NCBI GenBank assembly: GCA_003971905.1
Contig: RSEE01000075.1
Coordinates: 186,001 to 250,000 of the forward strand
Source of the DNA: Moniliella sp. 'wahieum'
Lineage: Eukaryota
Direction of reading: 5' to 3'
Length of the DNA stretch: 64,000 bases
Below, piece after piece: positions 4,327-50,654 of this stretch (its first letter is position 1; the number at the start of each line of letters is the position of its first letter). The notes beneath the pieces are model-generated. The model ran no database searches and was not told where the DNA came from. It was given only the letters and a program-made list of their open reading frames with translations. A program made the position numbers and the translations under genes.

Positions 4327-7300
4327 CTACCTACCGTGCAGGGCAGTGGAAGGCGGGAACAGGTTGAAAAAACAGTAGAGGTAGTCGCGCCTGAGGCAGA
4401 GTTGCGTCGTATCGGGGTTGGTCACCACTGCTTCGCTCCATAGCAGCTCGCCCGAGGTACAGTCCAAGCTGGCCACATGCGCGCCCTCATCTGCATTGCA
4501 CGCCAGCACGACCAAGCTCTGGTCCACCCGGTCCAGTGAGCTCAAATGTAAATGCGGTATATCTCTTGTGGCGGCCGGTGCGTGCGCTGGGCGCGTCGTG
4601 GACCAAGTCCGGATGATCGTAGTCCATGGGAAGCAGAAGGTCCTCCTCCACCAGCCGGAGCGCATCGCGGTCCACTTCGCCTTTGTCTCCGCCTTCTGCT
4701 CCTTCTCTTTCAAACGTTAAACAACACTGACTTTGTGGCGCCCCGATCGGCACGGATCTAGAGAGTGGTTCTGCCCGCCTCGCGGCGCGCCAGGCTAGTG
4801 CTCCTCCAACCAGCGCTCGGCCTGCTGGCCCCAGTCCCACACGAGGAACGCACCGACTTGCAGCCCGCCGTCGTCTAGGACCCGATCGCGGTGCGCCTGG
4901 CTCTCCTCGTCCAGCAGGATCAACGTCGCGCCGGTGGCGGTCAACGTATTGAACTTGAGACGCAGCTGCTCAGCGAGCACGCTGGCCCAGAGCAAGGCTT
5001 CGTGCCCGCCCCGCTGGCGCTTGTTGGAAACCCGGGTGACAATGTTGTGGTAGCCGGCGGGCGAGAGGGAGCGCCAGACGGGCCCGGCGACCAGCCGGCA
5101 CAGCCGGATCTCCTCGGGCTTCCGCGCGTGTTTCCAGTCAATGACAAATGGCACAAGCAAGCCATCGGGCTTGGACCCGCGTGGGATTCCTCCCGGGGTA
5201 GACTTGCCCTTCCTGTTCCATCGCCAGCCGTAGTTGATCTGTGGCAAGAGCATTCGCCCGTTGCCCACGGAATGGCCACAGTGGTGAGGGAACGTGGACT
5301 CCTGCAGCTGCAGAAAGGCCATCCAGCTCACACGTTCCGACACGATCATTTTTTTGTAATCCTTGATGAGCCAAAGAGCGTGGAAGCCGTCCATCGGAAA
5401 TGGGTGCTGGATCCCGGCATGGAACACACTGATCAGAAGCGTTTCCGTAGTCGCGTCGAAAAACACTTCTTGCACAGCCATGCTTCCCGTCCCAATGCCA
5501 ATGCTGTATCGATGGGGTCGCTACCTCCATCCCGAGTCAGCTCAGCTATTGTTAAAAGAAGAAACAAGAAAACGAGGTGGGCGGGGGGGTACGTACACCA
5601 TCTCCCACTACGCGTTCCATCGAATGACCATCGACATCCATACGCTCAGGATCGAGGATAAAATGAGCGGCATTGTCCAAATGGCTAGCGTTCCCATCCT
5701 TCCACATGTCTTTAAAGGACCACACGGTTTGTCCCGTTTCGGGTGACATGGCGATAAGGTCGCCCTGCGAAATGAGGTACACGTACTTGTCATCCGCAAA
5801 CAGTTTCCAGTTGAACACTTCGGAGCTGCGATAGAGTTAGCGGCCAAAACCCCAGAGGATGCATTCGACATACTTTAGTTCTCTCTTCAGGTCTGGACGG
5901 GCGTCGTACGGCACCTTGTTCTCGAACCAGGGATGATCTGTCACCACACCTTTGTCCTCGACCCCAGTCTCAACGTTAAATGTGGATAGGTTGGTGCGGT
6001 CCTTTCCAGAGCTGAAGGGAGGGTTAATACATTTGTTTGGTATGACGCAGATACTAAACAGTCGGACATACAGGTGGTACACCTTCGGGTAACAGACCGC
6101 GGAAAACATCACGATTTGGTCCAGCATGCGTCGGTATTGTGGGTAGGTAAGTTCTGCACAACACAAACACATGGTGCGTACCACCTCCGGTGCGTTCTCT
6201 GACTCAAAGAAACAGTCGACATGTTGAAGGGAATACGGCGTTTCTCTCCAGTATCCACCCAGTCTTGTCGGTGTCGGTACCACAAGGAAGTTAGCGTTAG
6301 AACACTGTAGCAGAGCCAAAGGGAAGGCCACCCAACAAGGGGGCAACGTACCATCATCGACCTCCCAACTCCAAGTCCAAAAAAAGAGCACCGTGTTCCC
6401 CTCTCGATGGACCCGCAATACATACTGGTAAGATGTCCAGGGGCTGGGCAGCGGCAGCGGCGGCAAGGCAACGGAGCTTGGGCAATAAAACGAGGGGAGC
6501 ACGCCCACATCGATCAAACCATCCTCTCTCGGGTGAAAGACGCTGGTCGGGGTGTTGAGAAAAACGCTGGAAACGTGGTCTTCGGGCAAGCGTGGATCCG
6601 GATTCCAGGGATAGGGACTGATGAAATCAGCCAGCTGTGATTCGAGAGAGACGTTGGGCGCAGCCGTGCTAAAGGGAGGTGGATCCACCCCTTTGCTTAT
6701 CCGTTCGCCCGCCATGGTCCATCCGAACTGGTGCTCCAGCTCGGCCGCAACGACGAGTCCCTGCCATGTCTTGGCGACTTTGATGAACCCGGCGAGGCGC
6801 GCGGCCTGGGCCAACGTGGTACACGAGCGGGGCAGCCCAAGAAAGTGGATGGCCAGCCGGTGCCACACCGACTCGTCCTGCAGCTGGGAGTACAAGGCTG
6901 GGGCAACATGTCAATGTCAGCCATGTCACCCGCGCGCCGGGGCCGAGGCCGTGGAAGGAGGACGGGACGCACCCTTGCAGGTCCAGGAGAGCTTGATGAG
7001 CTGGCGAGGAGACAGCACGCCGCACGCGAGAATGTCGTGCATCACCTCGGTAGGCAGGGAGAGGAGGTGCGAGCGCGGGCGCGGTCGGGGTGGGTGGCCG
7101 GGGAGGCGACGGAGGGGGCGGGCGGGCGCGGCTGGCTGGCCGAATGGAGCTCGCGCAGAAGGCGGCGGGCGGCAAGAAGAACGCCCGGCGCATCGTTGGG
7201 CAGGTCGTACTCCCGCAGCGACTTGTGCGACAGCGCGGCGATGAGATCATCCTTGCTGAGACCAGCCGCGGACGGAATGCCGGCGGCGGAGGCAATGGAG

Positions 7301-7347
7301 CGCAGCGGGCCCACGTCGCACGCGTGCCAGAAGAACTGCTCGGGCAT
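4327..7347 (-). CDS. F-box protein with HeH/Rho_N-like motif and PQQ/WD-like beta-propeller, copy B (complete; spliced, frameshifted)
   Basis: ATG at 7347 (MPEQFFWHACDVGPLRSIASAAGIPSAAGLSKDDLIAALSHK). F-box with the same intron position as copy A. ORF pieces 5837-6895, 5552-5818, 4795-5481 and 4327-4713. Motifs GDLIAMSPETGQTVWSF and HVASLDCTSGELLWS. Confidence 0.7.
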
Positions 7348-7832
7348 GGCGGCGCGCCGCGGGAGGGCGCGGGGCAGCAAGCGGGGGAGGCGGTGGCAGA
7401 GCGCAACGCACAAGGCGACGCGCAAAAGCATGGCCGATGCCCACGCGTAACGCGTAACCCTACACGTGGTGTCCTGAACCCTGAGGCTCAGGCCTGACCC
7501 CTGACCGGTGACCTGAAGCTCATTCTGCTGTCTCAGGCAGCAGCACCCGGACAGTGGCCTGGTGCCATCGCGGGTTTAGCACTGTGTGCCTAGTTATGTG
7601 GTGCTTCCGGCGGGACAGCAGAACGTTTTGGACGACAAACGACACGCACGCTCGCGTTCTTGGCTCGCATCTGTCACCATTTCATCCCATTGCCCTCGAT
7701 TCCTCCGGTCTTCCGTTCGCCCTTGGTCGGTGGCTAACGCTTGTGGCTTCCCTCCTCAAAGGATTGCCCCTGTTCCCTCATTTCATCCTTAGTTGCCTCG
7801 TCGGGTTAGGGGATCCCCTCTTCCATCACTGC

Positions 7833-8607
7833 TGTGACGGGGTGGCTGGTTTCCCAGGCGGAGACCTTCCCTGCCCATCGGAGACAGTACTCACGGAGGA
7901 CTGAACGCGTTTCAGATCCAAAGTCCAAGGCTCACTGGCGTGAACGTAGGAGGGTCGTGAGTGATGCTTTACGGTGCGTCGAGCAGAGCCTGTGCAGCGG
8001 TCGGCAAGTAGAGGTTGCGAAAGGTGCAGCGGTCTGCGAGCTGAGGTTGCGTGTATAGGGGCTGGACGCGAAAGCAGTGTGCTCCGATGGGCGAGGGAGG
8101 GCGAGCGAGCGGTGCGAGAGGTGTTCCTTCTAGAAGTGGAGAGCCTAGAAGAAGGGTGAAGGGGAAAGAATGGTCGGCGGCTTGGGCCATCATCATTGGA
8201 TCTAAGAACAGGCAGGTTTTATAGAAGAGAAAGGGGACAAAGCAAGACCAAGAGGTCTACAGAGCAAAAGGGGAAACGAGCCAAGGGAAGGAAAGAGGAC
8301 CAAGCGCGAGAGGGACGAGGCGAGAGACGAGACGAGGGTCAAGGGCAAAATGGACCCGAGACGAGAAACGAGGCGAGAAACTAAGTCGAGAAACCATGTG
8401 TTGTGTTTTGGATTTTAGACGAGCGCGAGCGGAGAAACCAAGATAGTTGTGGGTTTTGTTGATAGGAAGACGATCCGAGTCAAGATAGCGAAAGAGAAGA
8501 GAAAACGAGTCGAGATAGGCGAGATGGTGGAAGAAGCCGAGAAGCGATAGAAACGATAAGGAAGTGGAGGCGGCTGTGCAAGGTAGTTCAGACATCGCCC
8601 CGTGACA
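7833..8607 (-). repeat. 3' LTR
   Basis: Plus strand TGTGACGGGG...CCCCGTGACA. Matches 13627-14397 apart from a few small indels. Confidence 0.97.
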
Positions 8608-8620
8608 TTACCACCCCCTA
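8608..8620 (-). promoter_or_regulatory. Polypurine tract
   Basis: Minus strand TAGGGGGTGGTAA immediately precedes the 3' LTR TGTCAC. Confidence 0.8.
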
Positions 8621-11600
8621 CTAAGCTTCTTGGCTGTTCGTAGGTACTTGTCCACCTGCCGACGGCGTGCCGTAGGGCAAGGGGCATCTGGGTGGTCGCG
8701 ATGGAAAGCAACCACGGCTGGGGCTCCATGGCTGAGCTCCGAAGTTGGGATCCATTCGTTGTGGCTGGCAGGGAAACCAGTCCAACGCACGAAGTAGAAG
8801 TAGGACCGTCCATCGCGTCGACAGTCGAGAATCTCTTCGACACGGTAGGCCTCCTGACCGTCGACAATCTCTGGCTCCGGCACGGCAGGGGGATGGGAGC
8901 GGGCGTCGACGCGGTCAGGTCGAAGAGGTTCCAGATAGGCCACATTCACCACGGGGTTGATGGTGTGGAGGTCGCGAGGCAAGTCCAACCGGTAGGCATT
9001 GTCATTGACCTTCTCCAAAACTTTGAAGGGCCCAAGGTAGAGGGGATCCAACGTAGAAGTAGAGCGTCCGGCTGCCATGCGGGTGTGTTCGACCAAAACC
9101 ATGTCTCCTGGGTGCAAGTCAGGCGAAGCCGTGCGGCGCTGATTGGCGTAGTGTTGATGGCGCTTAGCAGCTTCGGCAAGACAGGCAGCAGCTTTACCAA
9201 TCGCCTCGGAGCGGGCAGCAACGAAGTCGGGAGGCGAAAGGGGGAGCGGAGAGAGAGGAGCGAGGTTCGTAGCCCAGGATCAACTTGAAGGGAGTTTGTC
9301 CTGTGCTGGCGCTCACGGCATTGTTTGCAGCGAACTCGGCGGCGGGCAATAGAGTAGCCCAGTTGGTTTTAGAACCGTCGATGTAGAACCGCAAGTACGT
9401 TTCGAGTTGCTGGTTGGCTCGTTCTGCTTGACCAGATGTCTGAGGCCAAAGTCCTGAGCCTAGACACGAGCGAATGCCATGGAGAGCGAGGAAGTCGCGG
9501 AAGAGGGAACTGGTGAAGGTAGGGCCACGGTCCGACACCAATTCTTCCGGGTAGCCACGGAGAGAGAACACGTGCTTTTCAAGCTGGTCGCACAAGGTTT
9601 GGGCATTATCCTGCGTACTGGCTGGGATGAAGGTGCAGTACTTGGAAAGCGATCGACCACCACCAAAATGGCATCGTACCCATCCGACCGAGGTAGGCCA
9701 ACGATATGGTCCATTGCCAAGGATTGGAAAGGCCGGGTCGGGGTAGGCAGGGGCATAAGGTATCCTTGTTGAGCGTGACGCCGATGCTTGTTGCGCTGGC
9801 ACTCAAGACAACCCGACACATAGTTGCGTACATACTCGTACATGCCAATCCAGAACCAGTGCCGATGGACGAGATCAAAGGTTTTGTCCCGCCCTGGGTG
9901 GCCAGCAGTCTCCTTGTCGTGTGCGTGTGCCAAGATCCGGCGTCGAAGGCCATCACTGTCGGGCACGTAGACTTGTTCTCCGTGGTACAGCAACCCATTG
10001 GACAAGCGCCATCCTTCCGCTGTAGAGGCATCTTCCTCCAGCGCGGCACAGATCTCGCGATATTTGGCATCATCTGGCAGCAGCTCTCGTAGACTTGCGA
10101 GCAGCGGAGTGTCTTCGGGTGGTGTAGGCGTTTCACCCCCCTCCTCAGGGCTAGGTGAAGTGTCCAAAGCAATTGCAGCCAACTTCAGTGGGGTACCGGT
10201 GGTTGATTGGCCCTCAGGTCCGATAGACAGTGGAACCATAAGGGGTCGCTCTTGGCCAAGCAAGTCATCCGCCACGGGTCCGACGTAGTCCGGGCGGCGA
10301 CTCAGAGCGTCTGCGATAACGTTGCTTCCACCGGGCCGGTACTGAAGATGAATGTTGAAGGCCGAAATTTCCTCATGCCACCGCGCTTGGCGACGAGCCA
10401 GACGTTTGGGCGCGGTAAAGGCAGTGAGGTTGGCATGGTCCGTTAAAACAATGACTGAGGGGACCGATACGACATGGTGCCTCCAAGTACGCAGCGCCTC
10501 CAGGACAGCGAGCAGTTCTTTTTCTCCAACGGTGTAATTGCGTTCTGCACCGGTGAGGGTCCTGGAGTAATAGGCAGCGGGATGCCAACGCTGGTCGTCA
10601 TGTTTTTGTGCCAACACGGCCCCAAGGGCATAGTCCGAAGCGTCCGTTTCGACCCGAGTCTCCAGTTCGGAGTCGAAGTGGCGCAGGACCGGGGTAGTAG
10701 TCAATGCAACCTTCAACGCTGAGAAGCTTTCCTCATGCTTCTCAAGCCATTCAAAGGGTTGACTCTTCTTCAATAGGTCGTTGAGGGGGCGAGCCAACTG
10801 GCTGAACCCGCGCACAAATCGACGCAAGAAGTTTGCCGCTCCCATAAAGACACGAATGTCTCTAACCGATTTGGGAGTGGGCCATTCTGCAAACGCCTTG
10901 GCCTTGGTAAGGTCGACATGGACTCCCTCTGCATCGACCACATAACCGAGATAGGCGCAAGAGGGTTGGTGGAACCGACATTTCTCCAGAGAGGCGTAAA
11001 GTTTGTTCTCTCGGAGTCGAGTCAGAACCTCCCGTACAAGAGCCGTGTGTTCCTCTCCGTTGCCGCATAGCAGAGGATGTCATCGATAAAACAAACCACT
11101 CCCGAACCAGGCCTTGCGACCAAGTCGCGGAAGATCGAGTTCATCAAAGACGTGAACGTTGCTGGCGCATTCGTCATGCCAAAGTTCATCACAAGGCTCT
11201 CGTACGTCCCCATCGTTGTCACGAAAGCAGTTTTGGGGACGTCTTCCTCCGTCACACGGACCAGATTGAACGCGCCACGCAGGTCAAGCGAAGTAAAGAT
11301 TTTCGACCCTTGTAGGCTGTCCAACGCATCCGCCATGAGTGGCAGAGCGACCTGGTGCTTGACCGAGACCGAGTTAAGACCTTTGTAGTTAACCACGAGA
11401 CGTAGGTCGCCATTCTTCTTCTTGATGTAGAATACAGGCGCGCCCCACGGTGAACGAGACCGGCGGATAAATCCTCTTTCGAGGTTCTCCTTAATCCAGG
11501 CCCTGAGGGCTTCGGTCTCATCCCGGGACAAGGGGTATGCGCGTGAGAAACTTGGTTTGGCGCCGTCTTGGGTCTCGATGGTATGGTCAAAACCTGGTCG

Positions 11601-12396
11601 GTGGGGAGGTAAACGGTTCGCTCGGTGGACGGAAAAGACATCTGGGAAGTCCTTGTACTCCTGAGGCAATTCCCGTGCAATTGTTTCTTCTCGTCCAGAG
11701 CTGGGGCATCTTCGGGGAAGAGGGGGAAAGGTTCCTCCTCCTCGGTGCCAGTCGAATCCCCTCCGCCCGCCGCGAATTGGGCAGAGTTGATGCGTAAGTG
11801 TGGTTCGGTTACCACTTCGAGGCTTAGGGAGGTGATGCGGCCAATCTCTGCATCGGGGTCCTCCCTCAAAGCTCTCATCGCGTTCGCCATTGAACAGAGC
11901 GAGATCGTTGGCGAGCGACGAGGTTGATCCGGTGCTTTCGTCGTGGCCTGCTTGCCGGGGTCTGGACCGACAAGCTTAGCAGCCTTGTGGCACACGAAAG
12001 AAGCGAGCGTGTAACCCAGTTAACGAGTGGGTTGTGAGTCCTGAGGAAATCATAGCCAAGAATCAGGGGCTGTGAAGGTAGAGGACAAGCGAAAAAGGTG
12101 TGCAAACGTGGTCGCCAACGGTCAACTCTACAGTTGTGAACTGGGTGATGTCCCCACCCGCAAGTGAAGTGCCATCGGCTAGACGTACCCTCTGAGGTTC
12201 TTTGAGGTTTTGGAAACGGAGTCCAAACCGGGCAGCAAACGTCGGTGAGATGAACGACGCAGAGGCCCCTGAGTCGACCAAGGCGGTACCGGTTGCCTTG
12301 GTGTTGTCCTGCCGAAGCTGAACTCTAGTCCGGATGAGAGGTTCTCCTCCGGAGCCGAGTGCTCCGACCTGGACAGCCGAGGGTGTGGAAGCCCCC
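8608..12396 (-). CDS. pol: pol polyprotein (protease, RT, RNase H, integrase, chromodomain); frameshifted in this consensus
   Basis: PR ALVDSGASASFIS; RT SPWGAPVFYIKKKNGDLRLVVNYKGLN...FIDDIL; RH ETDASDYALGAVL; IN HDKETAGHPGRDKT..CLECQRNK, VSDRGPTFTS, GQAERANQ; chromodomain YRVEEILDCRRDGRSYFYFVRWTGFPASHNEWIP. Confidence 0.95.
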
Positions 12397-13459
12397 TTAG
12401 TTTTGGTGCGCAGAGAGGTACTCCTCTTCTGAGACGAGGGAGTTAGGGCATTCCGGTGCACGGTGCCCTTTCGTCTTGCAGCGAAAGCAGCGCCCTTCCT
12501 GGTGCAGCTGTCGTTGGAAAGGGGAAAGGCGAGAGAGGTAACCGCTTTTCGCGTTGTTGCGGTTGCTGCTGCTGCTGTTGTTCTTGCTGTTGCGACCCAC
12601 TTGGATTGCGTCGAGCTCCATCGGTTCGTATCCGTCCGACCCTGAGGCGGCGGTACTCGACGTGTTGGTGGACGCAGTGTAGCGTTCGTTGTCGTTGTTG
12701 GACGCCCCCGGGGTCCGCCGAGGGCCCGATCGAAAGGGCTGATTGGATTTGCTGGTTTGACCCTGGCCGCGTGCCGTGCGGGCCAACTTCAGCTCATTTT
12801 CCATATCCAACGCTTTGTCCATCCAGTTAGAGAGGCGGTTCGGCTGAGCATGCATCACCGGAATCAATAGTTCTTCCAAATCGGCAGGTAGACCCGATCG
12901 GTAGAAACGAATGAGTGTGAAGTTTGTCTCGCCGCGTTCTCCACTGAATTCTTCTGAACCCAAGGCTGATTTGAGCGAACGGAATGTGGCGTTGTAGTGT
13001 ACCACACCTTGTGTTCCAACCTTTAGGCGTTCAAGCTTTTCGTAAGCGCGATAAGCTTCTTGCGGATTGCCAAACTGGCGAAGCATTGCTGCGCGGAAGT
13101 TCCCCCATGTTGCGAACTCTTGTTTGAGATTAGCGCTGGGCGTGGAGGCAAAGATGTCGTGTATATCCCCTGAGACCCACTTCTCATCATCACCGGTGAA
13201 ATGGAACACAGCCTCGTGGATCACTTCCCGATCGTTGGTAATACCGTTCCGATCACACAGCACTTTGCACCTGTAAAGCCACAATTCGATTTGCGGTTAG
13301 GGTTAGGGTTAGGGTTAGGGTTGGTAGATCGGTGTAGCGAATTTGACGACCCGGACGACGACCCTGGAGATCAGCTTCGACGTCCATTGACTGAGCCGCG
13401 TGAAAGGTTTCCCACGAGGGTGCCTGGGGGTTTCCACCGGGGTTCTGTTGAGGGTTCAT
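12397..13459 (-). CDS. gag: gag (capsid plus CCHC zinc knuckle)
   Basis: ORFs 13253-13459 and 12397-13284. EPMELD motif and knuckle RCFRCKTKGHRAPECPN. Confidence 0.9.
13297..13320 (+). repeat. (TTAGGG)4 telomere-like hexamer array inside the gag 5' region
   Basis: Direct reading: ttagggttagggttagggttaggg, followed by ttggtag. Confidence 0.95.
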
Positions 13460-13610
13460 GGGAGAGGGAGAGCGGGAGAGTGCACAATCGGCTTGAGGTG
13501 GTCACACCGTCCTGAGAACGTGCAGTGAAGAGATCTGGGAGAATTCTGGTTCGTCTTGGTTAGCTCGACCATTTTCGAAAGTTGGGGTCGAGGTCCGGTC
13601 TGGCCTGGGG

Positions 13611-13624
13611 AAGCCGCCGACCAT
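13611..13624 (-). promoter_or_regulatory. Primer-binding site, complementary to a sequence within the element's own LTR
   Basis: Minus strand ATGGTCGGCGGCTT starts 2 nt after the 5' LTR. Its complement lies in the LTR at 13964-13977. Confidence 0.85.
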
Positions 13625-13626
13625 AA

Positions 13627-14397
13627 TGTGACGGGGTGGCTGGTTTCCCAGGCGGAGACCTTCCCTGCCCATCGGAGACAGTACTCACGGAGGACTGAAC
13701 GCGTTTCAGATCCAAAGTCCAAGGCTCACTGGCGTGAACGTAGGAGGGTCGTGAGTGATGCTTTACGGTGCGTCGAGCAGAGCCTGTGCAGCGGTCGGCA
13801 AGTAGAGGTTGCGAAAGGTGCAGCGGTCTGCGAGCTGAGGTTGCGTGTATAGGGGCTGGACGCGAAAGCAGTGTGCTCCGATGGGCGAGGGAGGGCGAGC
13901 GAGCGGTGCGAGAGGTGTTCCTTCTAGAAGTGGAGAGCCTAGAAGAAGGGTGAAGGGGAAAGAATGGTCGGCGGCTTGGGCCATCATCATTGGATCTAAG
14001 AACAGGCAGGTTTTATAGAAGAGAAAGGGGACAAAGCAAGACCAAGAGGTCTACAGAGCAAAAGGGGAAACGAGCCAAGGGAAGGAAAGAGGACCAAGCG
14101 CGAGAGGGACGAGGCGAGAGACGAGACGAGGGTCAAGGGCAAAATGGACCCGAGACGAGAAACGAGCGAGAAACTAAGTCGAGAAACCATGTGTTTGTTT
14201 TGGATTTTAGACGAGCGCGAGCGGAGAAACCAAGATAGTTGTGGGTTTTGTTGATAGGAAGACGATCCGAGTCAAGATAGCGAAAGAGAAGAGAAACGAG
14301 TCGAGATAGGCGAGATGGTGGAAGAAGCCGAGAAGCGATAGAAACGATAAGGAAGTGGAGGCGGCTGTGCAGGTAGTTCAGACATCGCCCCGTGACA
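13627..14397 (-). repeat. 5' LTR, with TATAAAA box at 14011-14017 (minus strand)
   Basis: Same termini and sequence as 7833-8607. Confidence 0.97.
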
Positions 14398-15146
14398 AAA
14401 CGATCGTGCGGAAGCCCTACTGAGATGCACTGTTGCCAGCCCCCTATAGCAGCTCTTCATCTTCTTCTACGCCTCGTTATTCTTCTCCTTCTCCTTCTAC
14501 TGACCCAGTGAGGCCAAGTGGCCCCTGCTTGTCCCGCCCCGCCTCCCACCACCCATCCTACCACCGTGCTGCAATGGATGGGCAGACTGTGGCGGTGGCG
14601 CGTCCGGTTCGCGACGCGCGCGACGCATTGCGGGCCGCGGTGGCCTGGAAGAGCGACTTTTTGTGCAGGACAGCCTTTAATCAGCATGGGGGTGAGGGAG
14701 TCCATGGGCATAGCCTGAGGCAGCAAGTGGATGAAGCTCAGCGGCATGGCTCATCTGGTGCTGCTGTCAGCACGACAAGCCAAGTGTGGAGGAACATGGA
14801 GATCACACGCGCGGCATGACATCACCGCACCCGGCGTGGCTTGGAGCGCTCCAGCGTGGCGCTTACTTGTGTTGCCTGCCACAGACGCTTGCTAGCTGGG
14901 GCTATCCACTGCGCCCGCCCCCCATCCACTTGTTACCCTGTCCTCCCCCACCCCCAATGCCTTGCCCCCAGTTATGGCGACAGCCTCGCGCTCAAGAGAG
15001 TTGTACGCCAGTTGTGATATGAACTGTTGATTCCTTCCCCCCACTTTCTCAAGTCTCTCTCTATATCGACAGGAAACATACATGGCTAGTCCAACATATT
15101 TGCTTGGTGCTGAGCCTCGCTCGACCACCAACATGAACAGGACCGA

Positions 15147-17195
15147 TTAACTCAAAACGACTAGAGCCGAACCAAACAGGACAGGGCAGCTTAACAGCTC
15201 CTTGACCTTCTTTTGGATCGAGTCCGAGTCGAGACCCTGGTGAGGGATCTGCTCCCAAAGACCACCCGACCCCTCAACGGTGGTGCCCAGGTGGGCAAAC
15301 TTGCCCGGGCGAATGTTGCGCTCCAAGAGCCAAGAGCCGACGCGCGAGCCGAGGCCATTAGCCTTGTTGAACGACTCAACCACCAGGGTGAACTTGCCGG
15401 CACCCCATACCTTGATCGCCTCCTCCTCGTCCACCACGTTGAGCGTCGCCTTGTTGATCACACCCACCTTGATCCCCTCGGCCTTGAGCTTGTCAACGGC
15501 ATCGACGACACGGTACAGCATCTCACCAAACGTGACGATCCAGCCTTCGACCTCACCGGGGGCACACGGATAATGTCATCCTTACCTGGAACAAAGGTGT
15601 AGCCCTCGCCATAGAAGCGCTCCGAGTCCGAACCCTCCTTCAGCACCCAAGGCACCTTCGACCGGGTCGAAAACACGAACCGAAGGCCAGGCGCGTACAG
15701 CACCTTCTCAATCACCGCCGTCATCTGGGTCGGGTCGGCAGGGAAGTAGAGGTTGGTGGGCACACCCGCATCCGACAGACCATTGTCGGCAAAGAAGTTG
15801 TTGATACCAAAGTGGCACGTGTTGTCCGCCATCTCATCAACACCGGCGTGAGAGAAGTGAGAAAGGACGTTGGACTTGTTGAGGCGCGCCATGGTAAGCT
15901 CCGAGATGACCATCTCAAGGAAAGCCGAGAAGGTGGAGAAATACCGGTGCGGTATTCGCCTTCGGGACAAACGAGCCAAAGCCAGCGGCAGCGCTGAAGT
16001 TGCCGCGCTCGCAAATGCCCGAGGACCAGAAGACCTCGGGTGCTTCTGGTGAATGACCTTGAGACCAGTCGAGCCCTCCAGGTCCGAGTCAATGCAGAGC
16101 ACCTTCTTGGCGTTCTCCTCCTTCGACGTCTTGTCCAACACAGCAGCAACAGCGTCACCAAAGACACACGGTTCGCACCCCGCTCCTTGGTCGAGCCAAT
16201 GTACGTGTACGGGTCCTTGCGGGGCTTGATGCTCTCGAGGATGGCGACGGCATCCTTGTTGCCAGCGTCGGTGAGGAACTCAATCGCCTTGGGAAGGGGA
16301 ATCACATCGTGGCCGTGGGGGTTGCCCTCGATGCCCTTGATACCGGGCGCCATGGGACGCTTGGTGATCACAGCAACAGGGCCCTTGGTGTTGACTGCCT
16401 CGATGATGGCGCCAAAGAGACTGTCGAGGTCTTCACCCTCGGCGCGGACGATCTTGAGGCCGTGGCCCTCAAGGGTCTTCCCAACGTCGTAGCCCTTGAA
16501 GTAGTCCGAGGGGTGGCCAGCAATGGTAACGTTGTTGTCGTCAATGAAGAGTTTGACGTTGAGGTCCTTGGCAACCGCAAGGCGAGCAGCCTCAGCATCG
16601 TCACCCTCTTGCTCCGACCCGTCAGAGCCAAGCATGATGGTGATCTTGTCAGCATGGCAGCAGCCACACCGTTGACCATCGGCCACATGTGGCCCAGGCG
16701 GCCGAGGAGAACTTGACGCCCGGGGTCAAACCAAGCTCGGGATGGCCGGGGAGCTTGCTGTCAGCCTCGCGGTAGTACAGGAGGTGGTCCGCAGGAACGC
16801 GCCGTCGAGAGCGGCCAAAAGGTACTGCGTCGCGACACGGTGGCCAGCCTCGTCAAAGAAGGTCTGGTAGAACTTGTCGCCGTCAGGACCGGCAAAGAGC
16901 GAGAGGAGCAGACAACCTCGGGGACAGTGTCGTAAGGCCCACCGGTGTGGCCCGAGACTGTGTCGGGGGAGGGGTCAGAAACGAGCTGGAGGGAAAGTAG
17001 GCAGAAGGGATACGTACCGCCACGGGCAGCGCCAGAGGCAGTGAAGAAGATGGCCTCGCGGAGGAGCTTGATGTTGGCGGACAGCTGCGCCTTCTGCTCG
17101 GCAGTAAGCTGCTTGTCGGCAAGCGACAGGGGCACAGGCTTGTACTGGTCCAGCGGGACGGGGAACTTGGTAATGTCAAAGGCCTGGAGGGGCAT
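15147..17195 (-). CDS. Transketolase-like thiamine-diphosphate-dependent enzyme (spliced, frameshifted)
   Basis: MPLQAFDITKF..; SGHTGGPYD; KLPGHPELG..SSGRLGHMWP; ThDP motif GSDGSEQEG..IDDNN; DSDLEGSTG; STFSAF; C-terminal domain KVGVINKATLNVVD..LVVESFN. Confidence 0.85.
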
Positions 17196-47923: not shown

Positions 47924-48568
47924 TCATAGGACAATGCAACAGCCCGAACTTGGCGAGGATTGCATCTGCCCTCGTTTTTCGTTCGCCCGGGTGGCAGCGG
48001 TGACAGGACCTTGTTGGATGTCCTGGTCCCGCACCATGATCGCCGCCCGAGTCGCCGCTTCAAAGACGGCATCAACGCCCTCGTTGTTGAGTGCTGATGT
48101 TTCTAGGTAAACTTTGGATCCAATCGTCTTGGCCATCTCCTGCCCCTGCTTTTTCGTGACACAGCTTTCGGGCGAGGGGGACTGGTCGCGCAAGTCGCGC
48201 TTGCATCCGACGAGGATGACGGGGATGCGTTGGCCGCAAATTTGACGCACCTCGTCATTCCACTTGTACCGCACATTCTCCAGACTGTCGGGCGTATCGA
48301 GCGCAAATGCAATCAGAATGACGTGCGCATGCGAGTAGCTCAACGGACGCAACCGTTCATACTCTTCTTGCCCCGCCGTGTCCCAGAGGGCGAGGAGGAT
48401 GGGTTTGCCATCCAGACGGATCTCTGCCACATAGTTCTCGAAGATCGTGGGCTGATACTGGTGCGGAAACTCGCCCAGGGCAAAGACGCACAGCAACGAC
48501 GTCTTGCCGCACGCGCCATCGCCAACGATGACCAGCTTGCGGCGGATCGCAGCGGGCGAGGGTGGCAT
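47924..48568 (-). CDS. RHO2: Rho-family GTPase Rho2
   Basis: RRKLVIVGDGACGKTSLLCVFALGEFP..PTIFENYVAEIRLDGK..LALWDTAGQEEYERLRPLSYS..SGCCIVL. Intact ORF. Confidence 0.93.
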   Translation of the reverse strand: MPPSPAAIRRKLVIVGDGACGKTSLLCVFALGEFPHQYQPTIFENYVAEIRLDGKPILLALWDTAGQEEYERLRPLSYSHAHVILIAFALDTPDSLENVRYKWNDEVRQICGQRIPVILVGCKRDLRDQSPSPESCVTKKQGQEMAKTIGSKVYLETSALNNEGVDAVFEAATRAAIMVRDQDIQQGPVTAATRANEKRGQMQSSPSSGCCIVL

Positions 48569-50654
48569 GGCGGAGACGAGCGGCGTAGCGTGGGGAGGGG
48601 GGGAGCGGGCACTGGTGTGCGCGAGACCAGCACGATACGAGGCGGGAGTGAGAGCGGGAGGAGGGGCAGTCGGGAGCGGTGGTGGCCGCGGGGGAAGAGG
48701 AGGCAGAGGTGGTGGTGGTGTGGGTGGAGCTGGAGTAAGGAATGAACGCCCCTCGGCCAGGCCCGGAGCCTGAGCGGCTGAGCGGCGGCAACGACGGCCG
48801 CGGCGGCGCTGCTGCCACCCACACCCGATCGCTGAGCGATGCGTGATGGCCATGATGGCAGTGCGCAGGCGATCGGTGCAAGCGGGCACTGCGGTCCTGT
48901 GCCTGCCGCCCAGGATCCGCCGCTGATCGCCCGGATCGATCGCTGATCTGGCGCCTGGCCGCTTGCCCAACGCAGCGCCTTGGCGCGACTGTGCTGGGGC
49001 TACCATCACGCGTCACCCCCCACCCCCAGTATCAGTCGCCGCAATCGCATCTGCCAGTCACTGGTCACCGGCCACTGGTTCACCGGTCACGGCAGCGGTG
49101 CTCAACCCTAGCGGCACTAGCCTAGCCCTCGGCGCGGGCGGGCCACCCGCGGCCCACCGAGGTACTGAGTGAGTACTGAGTACGCTGCGTGCCCAGACGG
49201 ACGCCTGAGCCGGGGCGCACCGCCTTGACAGAAAGGCCAACCTGTTTCTCTCCCAGAGTGCTGCTGGTCCACAGCGTGCACGGTGCCCCAACCGGTGGGT
49301 GTGCTCTCGTCTCATCTCATTCGTCCTTGCTCTTCACCAGTCCGCCTCGGGCGTTCAGAATTCAGAATCCGTCCTGCTGTCGCCTCACACCGTCCCTCTG
49401 GGAACGCCTCTCCCTGCCCGCGGTTCTTTCACTGGCCGCGCACCATAATGGAGAGATGAGATCTGTCATGGGCCTCTAATCCGGTGGGTGTGTTTCATAG
49501 AGCTTCTTCAACTGGCCCTATGGCGCTTCCGCCGACGGCTTAGGTCGCTTAGGCCCTCACAACAATATCCCGGGGTATACTGTGCCTTGCCCCCAGACTC
49601 CGAGTTGGTCATTTGGTGTTGCGTTGATCGCAAGGCAGGAACATGGCAAGATGGAAAGCGGTGCACGTGTTGTGGTAATAATATGCGGAGTTGGAGGGAC
49701 CGGGGCAACAAGCAACCGCGGTGCATACCGGCGGCGGCCCGACACGGGGTCCGGGTTTTGCCAGAGTGGTCGGTAGCACTCCGATCGCCCCTGGTAGCCC
49801 CTGTGTTGCCATGCGGTATGAATATGCCGAGGTTATATCCCAAGCTCGCTGTTGCGATTGGGGTAAGAGCTGCGCCATTGTGGCTCTGTTATTTTTAGCT
49901 GTTCACTTTCTTTGCAAGTCTGGGAAAGACCCTTCTTGGCACGGTTATTCTGTTCAAGCTTCAAGCTGCTCCACACTCAAAAGGGGATCCCGAGCAACAG
50001 GCTTGGACAATATCGACTCACTGGCTGTTTCTTTGAGCTCCCACGCACGGTGGATCGCTCCCTACTGTTATGGAACAAGACTCGGCTCACATGCTGCCCA
50101 CGCGTCTTTGATGAACTTGGAGTTGATCGATGATATAACACCCCCAGGACCGAACGAGGGCCCCACCTAATTGTCCTGCCTTTTCTTCCCTCGTATCAGT
50201 AAGCTGAGTGACGATGCAGTCGCCAAAAGCCCGATGGGTCGTGCCATGTAGTCTCCACGATCAGGACGACGGACATACGTTCACCGCCCAGAGCATCCGG
50301 TCTACTAGCGCGAACGGGACCAACAGCACTGGCTTCTCCCTCGAGGCGTACCCGTTTCCCCCGCGTTTGCTCCCCCTCTCCATGTCTCTCAAGTCAAGCT
50401 TCAAGCTTCAAGTGACTTCAAGCTTCATTGGTCACTTAGTAATAGTCATTCGACCGGCCAGTCACTGTGCTGATCGACGGGCCGCGTCGATCGATGACCT
50501 CCAGACCAGCCTGAGCGAATGTCCTGTTTCCACATGCCAGAGTGCGACGTATGCTTTCCGTATCCTGTCTTTCCCACACGACATTGCCTACTTGGGCGTT
50601 TTATCTTCACTCTTCCGCGTCACATGTCACAGCCCCTGTGAGCCGGCGCGGCGC

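Follow-up and report, generated by a model that had tools for sequence, protein, structure and literature searches.

A Ty3/gypsy element on the minus strand of a 64,000-nt stretch of Moniliella sp. 'wahieum' DNA (hereafter, the window) carries, just past its 5' long terminal repeat (LTR), a primer-binding site (PBS) that is the complement of a site inside that same LTR, which raises the question of what molecule primes its minus-strand DNA synthesis. A sequence-only reading of the locus had answered that a young basidiomycete chromovirus primes reverse transcription with its own RNA rather than with a tRNA, as does Tf1 of Schizosaccharomyces pombe. We addressed this question by delimiting the element, by comparing its PBS/LTR pairing with chance expectations, and by looking at the same region in related elements from metagenomes.

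The element spans positions 7833-14397 (6,565 bp), and its features are collected in Table 1. Pfam domains follow one another along the minus strand in the order gag, protease, reverse transcriptase (RT), RNase H, and integrase, with Chromo placed after SH3_Tf2-1 in the last open reading frame (ORF) piece. This order, the chromodomain, the TG..CA LTRs, the polypurine tract, and the PBS identify the element as a Ty3/gypsy chromovirus (Metaviridae), as had been proposed from the letters alone. Its young age is likewise borne out by pairwise alignment of the LTRs, which revealed no substitution in 771 aligned bases and four single-base indels; on the other hand, the LTR extent implied by the earlier reading was too short, the actual lengths being 771 nt (5') and 775 nt (3'). 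An ORF survey found pol broken into at least six frame pieces. Because the two LTRs differ by indels only, these breaks could be either real frameshifts or assembly errors, and the assembly looks rich in indel errors. The element has no target-site duplication, its flanks at 14398-14402 and 7828-7832 reading CGTTT and GCAGT, respectively, which suggests an exchange between two copies or a rearranged flank and concerns the past of this one copy rather than its family. Since this duplication is missing and pol lies in so many pieces, the competence of this particular copy is only putative. BLAST of the element against the 64-kb window recovered nothing beyond the element and its LTRs, a tblastn search with the six ORF pieces gave no second chromovirus there, and the exact 24-nt pattern of LTR end and PBS had 0 matches in viral_contigs.

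Table 1. Features of the chromovirus in the window, listed from the 5' LTR to the 3' LTR of the element.
Feature	Position in window	Strand	Remarks
5' LTR	13627..14397	-	771 nt, TGTCAC...GTCACA; aligned with 3' LTR
TATAAAA, putative core promoter	14011..14017	-	first T lies 40 nt upstream of the putative primer site
Putative self-primer AAGCCGCCGACCAT; R and the transcript are proposed to begin here	13964..13977	-	exact reverse complement of the PBS; C/A at -1/+1
U5 arm of U5/leader stem, GGTCT-CC-GCCTGGG	13647..13660	-	constrained minimum-energy fold
Spacer TT between LTR end (..ACA) and PBS	13625..13626	-	2 nt
Primer-binding site ATGGTCGGCGGCTT	13611..13624	-	perfect 14-nt complement of the LTR site
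Leader arm of U5/leader stem, CCCAGGC-C-AGACC, directly after the PBS	13597..13609	-	constrained minimum-energy fold
gag	12397..13296	-	Pfam Retrotrans_gag 2.5e-07
Protease piece, in a frame different from gag	12063..12788	-	Pfam Asp_protease_2 7.2e-09
Reverse transcriptase piece	11022..11975	-	Pfam RVT_1 4e-22
RT end, RNase H, and integrase zinc-binding domain	9460..11079	-	Pfam RT_RNaseH_2 2.3e-34, Integrase_H2C2 3e-20
Integrase core piece	9194..9802	-	Pfam rve 6.4e-10
Integrase C-terminus: Tf2-1-like SH3 domain and chromodomain	8608..9279	-	Pfam SH3_Tf2-1 2.6e-16, Chromo 5.9e-10
Polypurine tract AGTAGGGGGTGGTAA	8608..8622	-	G-rich, abuts the 3' LTR
3' LTR	7833..8607	-	775 nt, starts TGTCAC, ends GTCACA
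14-mer copy in 3' LTR	8170..8183	-	identical to the putative self-primer

The PBS and the LTR site form a duplex of exactly 14 bp, with the flanking base unpaired on both sides. Both the coordinates given for the two partners (13624-13611 and 13977-13964) and their perfect match hold on the minus strand, and so does the 40-nt distance at which the LTR site follows the TATAAAA box beginning at 14017. A pyrimidine/purine pair at -1/+1, such as the C/A found here, is usual at transcription starts. Counted from the LTR site, the R-U5 of the window element is 351 nt long. A search of the window for the 14-mer without mismatches recovered the PBS and one site per LTR, and nothing else; with up to two mismatches, there were 4 matches against 0.66 expected, a figure that none of 100 shuffles reached. 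When random 33-nt internal windows were taken as a null, none of 300 had an LTR complement of 14 nt (the null maximum was 10), and none of 300 reached the duplex energy of the element's own pair. When the RNA comprising R-U5, PBS, and leader (13977-13560) was folded, the minimum-energy and the centroid structures alike contained the 14-bp duplex; z was -6.1, and none of 100 shuffles folded as well.

In Tf1/sushi elements, the self-priming structure is described in the parts of PMC10085805 used here as a three-duplex 'pretzel', in which the central primer/PBS duplex is accompanied by two outer duplexes that join PBS-adjacent sequence to LTR sequence downstream of the self-primer. The sequence-only reading had noted a second stem in the window element, pairing U5 GCCTGGGAAA (13653-13644) with leader TTCCCCAGGC (13612-13603) at 9 of 10 positions. 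The pairing stands but its length does not: the last two A-U pairs use the PBS bases 13612-13611, so that the stem as drawn is incompatible with the full 14-bp duplex. A constrained fold, in which primer and PBS were barred from other pairings, gives instead a longer, interrupted stem of 12 bp (13653-13647 with 13609-13603, and 13660-13656 with 13601-13597) around a loop of 37 nt that holds the PBS. Among 300 shuffled leaders, 7 paired as well. This stem crosses the primer/PBS duplex, in agreement with the 'pretzel' as published (PMC10085805). The upstream-adjacent duplex, by contrast, is represented in the window only by a 4-bp CUGG/CCAG hairpin that overlaps the U5/leader stem. Among the 11 metagenomic relatives (see below) tested for a U5/leader stem, none reached significance, the best being L018 (30/300) and L069 (41/300).

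The mechanism at issue is an established one. In the literature, self-priming is presented as common among the Tf1/sushi chromoviruses (PMC10085805, PMC4600332, PMC7175516), experimentally studied in Tf1 and Tf2 of S. pombe as well as in Tj1, Tosmo1-3, and Tcry1 (PMC7175516, PMC10085805; for Tj1, whose transposition has been assayed in fission yeast, PMC4600332). Like Tf1 and Tf2 as portrayed there, the window element is a chromodomain-bearing Ty3/gypsy element with a PBS just past the 5' LTR that is complementary to the start of its own R, and with an extra duplex between PBS-adjacent and U5 sequence. It differs in that the duplex is 14 bp, as against 11 in Tf1, in that primer and PBS lie 351 nt apart, in that one clear outer 'pretzel' duplex is seen rather than two, in that its PBS contains TGG, and in that it is known here from its sequence alone. 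Among basidiomycetes, self-priming has been proposed from sequence for another chromovirus, Tcn1 of Cryptococcus neoformans, according to the text consulted in PMC7175516, which cites Goodwin and Poulter (2001). The Tcn1 clade is recorded in these sources from basidiomycetes, mosses, and Selaginella; in one survey, self-priming is predicted for 12% of the plant elements covered and for most of the plant elements of the Tcn1 clade (PMC6317226). Other basidiomycete chromovirus clades named in PMC2864245 are MarY1, Laccy1/2, Tcn2, and Puccy1/2, and the window element could belong to any of these; its likeness to Tf1/sushi lies in the putative priming layout and the domains, the tree presented below being one of metagenome loci. 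We found no description of this chromovirus family in the literature searched.

To place the pairing in a wider context, metagenome contigs were searched with a six-row alignment, and 80 loci (denoted by L numbers) were kept of 575 confirmed. In RNase H-integrase, these loci are 33-46% identical to the window element, whose corresponding ORF has best database matches of ~40% identity, without a close relative. A tree of 78 rows comprising metagenome loci and the window, from which L027, L044, and L067 were left out for low coverage, sets the window element on a long branch (0.8) of unsure placement, with its nearest relative 44% identical. Judged by these sequences, the comparative support for self-priming comes from distant lineages. 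Seven loci with a PBS of the AGAACTCGAT type form one clade with a support of 100 and are thus counted as a single lineage; another clade (SH-aLRT 100) unites L072 and L057, and L066 lies elsewhere in the tree.

LTR pairs were sought in the 39 of 80 loci that reach at least 5 kb. Direct repeats were present in 18, namely nine LTR pairs around the pol match, five overlaps of contig ends, and four other repeats, among them that of L052, which resembled an LTR pair but was set aside as a repeat of coding sequence. The loci with overlapping contig ends (L005, L006, L014, L051, and L058), treated as circles, yielded no convincing PBS/LTR pair, and their LTR ends could not be set. Of the nine usable LTR pairs, five have a perfect PBS/LTR complement of 10-12 nt, and in a further two the pairing includes wobble or a single mismatch. 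Perfect complements that none of 300 null windows equalled in length were found in L018 (10 nt, starting 2 nt past the LTR end), L040 (11 nt, 1 nt past), L048 (12 nt, 2 nt past), and L072 (12 nt, 1 nt past). The fifth, in L019, measures 11 nt after its LTR end was corrected by 9 nt and was matched by 16 of 300 null windows, a null inflated by an inverted LTR fragment that lies in the element interior at ~1885. L069 and L073 lack a perfect complement of at least 10 nt: the former pairs over 10 bp with three G:U, and the latter over 10 bp with one mismatch in the 5' LTR copy or one G:U in the 3' LTR copy. In L066, the closest relative with LTRs, 8 perfect bp (32/300) are followed by 5 more after a one-base bulge, at a site ~70 nt from the nearest TATA, which makes it a weak case, and L062 shows no pairing (6 nt, 237/300). 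Outside the nine-locus set, L057 (11 nt, 0/300) and L044 (10 nt, 1/300) pair as well. The region upstream of gag was also screened generically for inverted pairs of 10 nt; with 11 of 18 loci positive versus 6 and 4 of 18 in control regions, this screen was too noisy and served only for picking L044 and correcting L019. The duplex-energy control was significant in L048 (6/300) and L040 (15/300) and fell short of significance in L018 (51/300), L019 (32/300), and L072 (29/300); this statistic discriminates poorly for AT-rich PBSs.

The seven relatives with perfect complements (L018, L019, L040, L048, L072, L057, and L044) share with the window element a TATA-like box followed by the LTR site, a PBS placed 1-2 nt past ..ACA, and G-rich polypurine tracts, and differ from it by other PBS letters without TGG, by duplexes of 10-12 bp, and by protein identities of only 33-46%. 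The spacer between ..ACA and the PBS is 2 nt in five of the seven and 1 nt in the other two, and a TATA-like hexamer lies 32-37 nt upstream of the LTR site in six of the seven, the 40 nt of the window being longer. The letters of the PBS vary with the lineage, AGAACTCGATA, AATTTACAGACT, ATTAACAAACT, and TTGATTCGAC being found in relatives and ATGGTCGGCGGCTT in the window, and each is complementary to its own LTR; the relatives thus contribute at least four different PBS sequences, none of which starts with TGG. Between L072 and L057, pair 4 changes from C-G to T-A and pair 8 from A-T to T-A, with both sides changed each time, and a PBS change in L033 leads to a G:U pair. The long R-U5 also recurs in the L072 clade, that of L072 measuring 328 nt and that of L057 382 nt, as compared with 351 nt in the window. 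Five-base-pair target duplications flank L018, L040, L048, L073, and L066.

Several details of these loci deserve mention in their own right. In the AGAACTCGAT clade (L019 508-528, L040 1392-1411, L048 2880-2901, and others), a local palindrome, GGGAACTC-YAT-CGAGTTCT, has the LTR site as its 3' half. The first 7 PBS bases recur immediately ahead of the putative transcript start; within the transcript of the 3' LTR, the palindrome would form a hairpin competing with, or mimicking, the primer/PBS duplex. A CCAAT-like ATCCAATG lies at 13994-13987 of the window, between the TATA box and the putative primer site; the same motif occurs in L019 and ATCCAACG in L040, ending 7-10 nt before the primer site in all three, a shared placement that may be chance. 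At 5936-6640 of L057, an LTR downstream of pol is directly followed by a PBS and a gag-like start, which indicates two tandem elements sharing one LTR.

That several lineages, each with its own letters, keep the PBS/LTR pairing makes self-priming of the Tf1 type the best reading of the window element, and one that we consider probable. The tRNA-independent mechanism put forward in the sequence-only reading thus gains support from the relatives, through pairing kept with different letters, a site ~33 nt past a TATA-like box, and two compensatory double changes. Whereas the pairing and its conservation are shown by these data, we infer where transcription starts, the cut by RNase H, and the priming itself as follows. 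Transcription would begin in the 5' LTR at 13977 or a few bases before it, ~33-40 nt past the TATA box. Folding back over the 351-nt R-U5, the first 14 bases of the transcript would pair with the PBS 2 nt past the LTR. The 12-bp interrupted U5/leader stem around the PBS would stabilise this fold, much as one of the outer duplexes of the Tf1 'pretzel'. The element's RNase H would then cut after the 14th base (13964), and the freed 3' end would be extended through the TT spacer and U5-R. After the first strand transfer, the 14-mer in the 3' LTR would restore the primer bases.

Other explanations of the pairing have to be weighed against these data. The PBS has TGG one base in, 3 nt past the LTR, which is the typical position of a tRNA-CCA site, and a host tRNA ending in ..GCCGCCGACCA, or a tRNA fragment, might anneal to TGGTCGGCGGC, leaving the LTR 14-mer without a priming role; the sequence to be sought in matching tRNA 3' ends (with CCA added) or internal segments would be ATGGTCGGCGGCTTCC. 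In the 64-kb window itself, ARAGORN predicted 0 tRNA genes. A tRNA primer would leave unexplained the perfect 14-nt LTR complement, in which one additional A-T pair lies beyond CCA and two others at the far end (0/300 null windows), as well as the promoter-proximal position of the site, which is common to the relatives, and no related lineage whose PBS is resolved has a TGG start. Moreover, this tRNA would have to begin with C opposite G72, an arrangement that is rare in eukaryotic cytoplasmic tRNAs. A text search of the literature for the PBS sequence gave, among the matches listed, only unrelated primers and aptamers. Within the element, Rfam found no tRNA-like RNA up to E 1, with only two sub-threshold, unrelated matches, and by inspection the sequence leading up to the LTR 14-mer does not resemble a T-arm. 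On this indirect evidence, we regard a tRNA primer as quite unlikely. An accidental origin is harder still to reconcile with the data: only a single copy was seen, without a target-site duplication and with possibly rearranged flanks, all of which would fit a chance match or a one-off rearrangement without function, for instance one that copied the PBS in inverted orientation into the LTR; however, the perfect 14-mer is far beyond chance, it is present in both LTRs, its ends coincide with a PBS start 2 nt past the LTR, and the same layout recurs in independent lineages. This possibility is therefore extremely improbable.

Conservation and covariation demonstrate selection for pairing and not for priming as such, and the minimum-energy fold closes a 350-nt domain. 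The pairing might accordingly be functional in some other way, the RNA 5' end masking the PBS, circularising the leader, or aiding packaging or dimerisation while another molecule acts as primer; long-range pairings of the 5' region with such roles are known from other LTR elements (Ty1). Against this, no other primer site is visible, and the duplex sits exactly where a primer must, 1-2 nt past the LTR, in the window and seven relatives. Furthermore, in Tf1, the one family in which such a layout was put to the test, the paired segment is the primer (PMC7175516, PMC10085805). A role in pairing other than priming is in our view unlikely.

Self-priming being the preferred reading, it remains to account for the TGG of the window PBS, from which the sequence-only reading had argued for a transitional state between tRNA-dependent and tRNA-independent priming. 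The comparison lends this no support: TGG stands at the PBS start in no self-pairing relative, so that self-priming would seem to be what is normal in the group. With about six lineages compared, a single PBS that has TGG near its start is nothing remarkable, and its occurrence by chance is not unlikely. A more elaborate account, in which the self-primer mimics a tRNA 3' end (ACCA plus one base, with TGG one base into the PBS) so that either a host tRNA or the element's own RNA could be used, would mark a switch between the two modes, in either direction, within an otherwise self-priming group; we deem it very unlikely. The duplex had also been described as longer than that of Tf1, and its 14 bp are indeed so, yet they exceed only slightly the 10-12 nt of the relatives.

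Self-priming is an already known mechanism, of which the window element is most likely a clean further example, set apart by its long R-U5 and by a duplex that is slightly longer. To the self-priming chromoviruses it contributes a basidiomycete case that is well documented, and it leaves the mechanism as known unchanged, while its metagenomic relatives show a primer/PBS pairing kept by compensatory change at a fixed distance from the TATA box. In fungal LTR elements without a PBS of the tRNA type, this TATA-to-site distance may be of use for annotating transcript starts and PBSs.

The DNA around the element provided information on the host. An ORF at 47924-49006 on the minus strand of the window encodes a Rho2-type small GTPase of 360 aa, in which a 156-aa N-terminal extension precedes the Ras domain. 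Its best matches are 93% and 85% identical, and the best species-named match is that of Tilletiaria anomala (Ustilaginomycotina; 71%), followed by other Basidiomycota. This neighbour supports the basidiomycete origin claimed by the sequence-only reading and a host that, judging from protein similarity, would be smut-like.

Two further observations concern the immediate surroundings of the chromovirus. A direct repeat of ~2.5 kb with 80-90% identity occupies 23-2609 and 5374-7814 of the window, the copies lying ~5.36 kb apart and the second ending just beside the chromovirus 3' LTR. This repeat includes a 42-bp tandem array at 1715-1944, and its ORFs had no Pfam match; it may have arisen by segmental duplication, or the two copies may be long LTRs left by an older element. 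On the other side, an ORF adjoining the chromovirus (15724-16725, minus strand) contains a weak fragment of a transketolase N-terminal domain (E 1.1e-05), possibly the relic of a gene.
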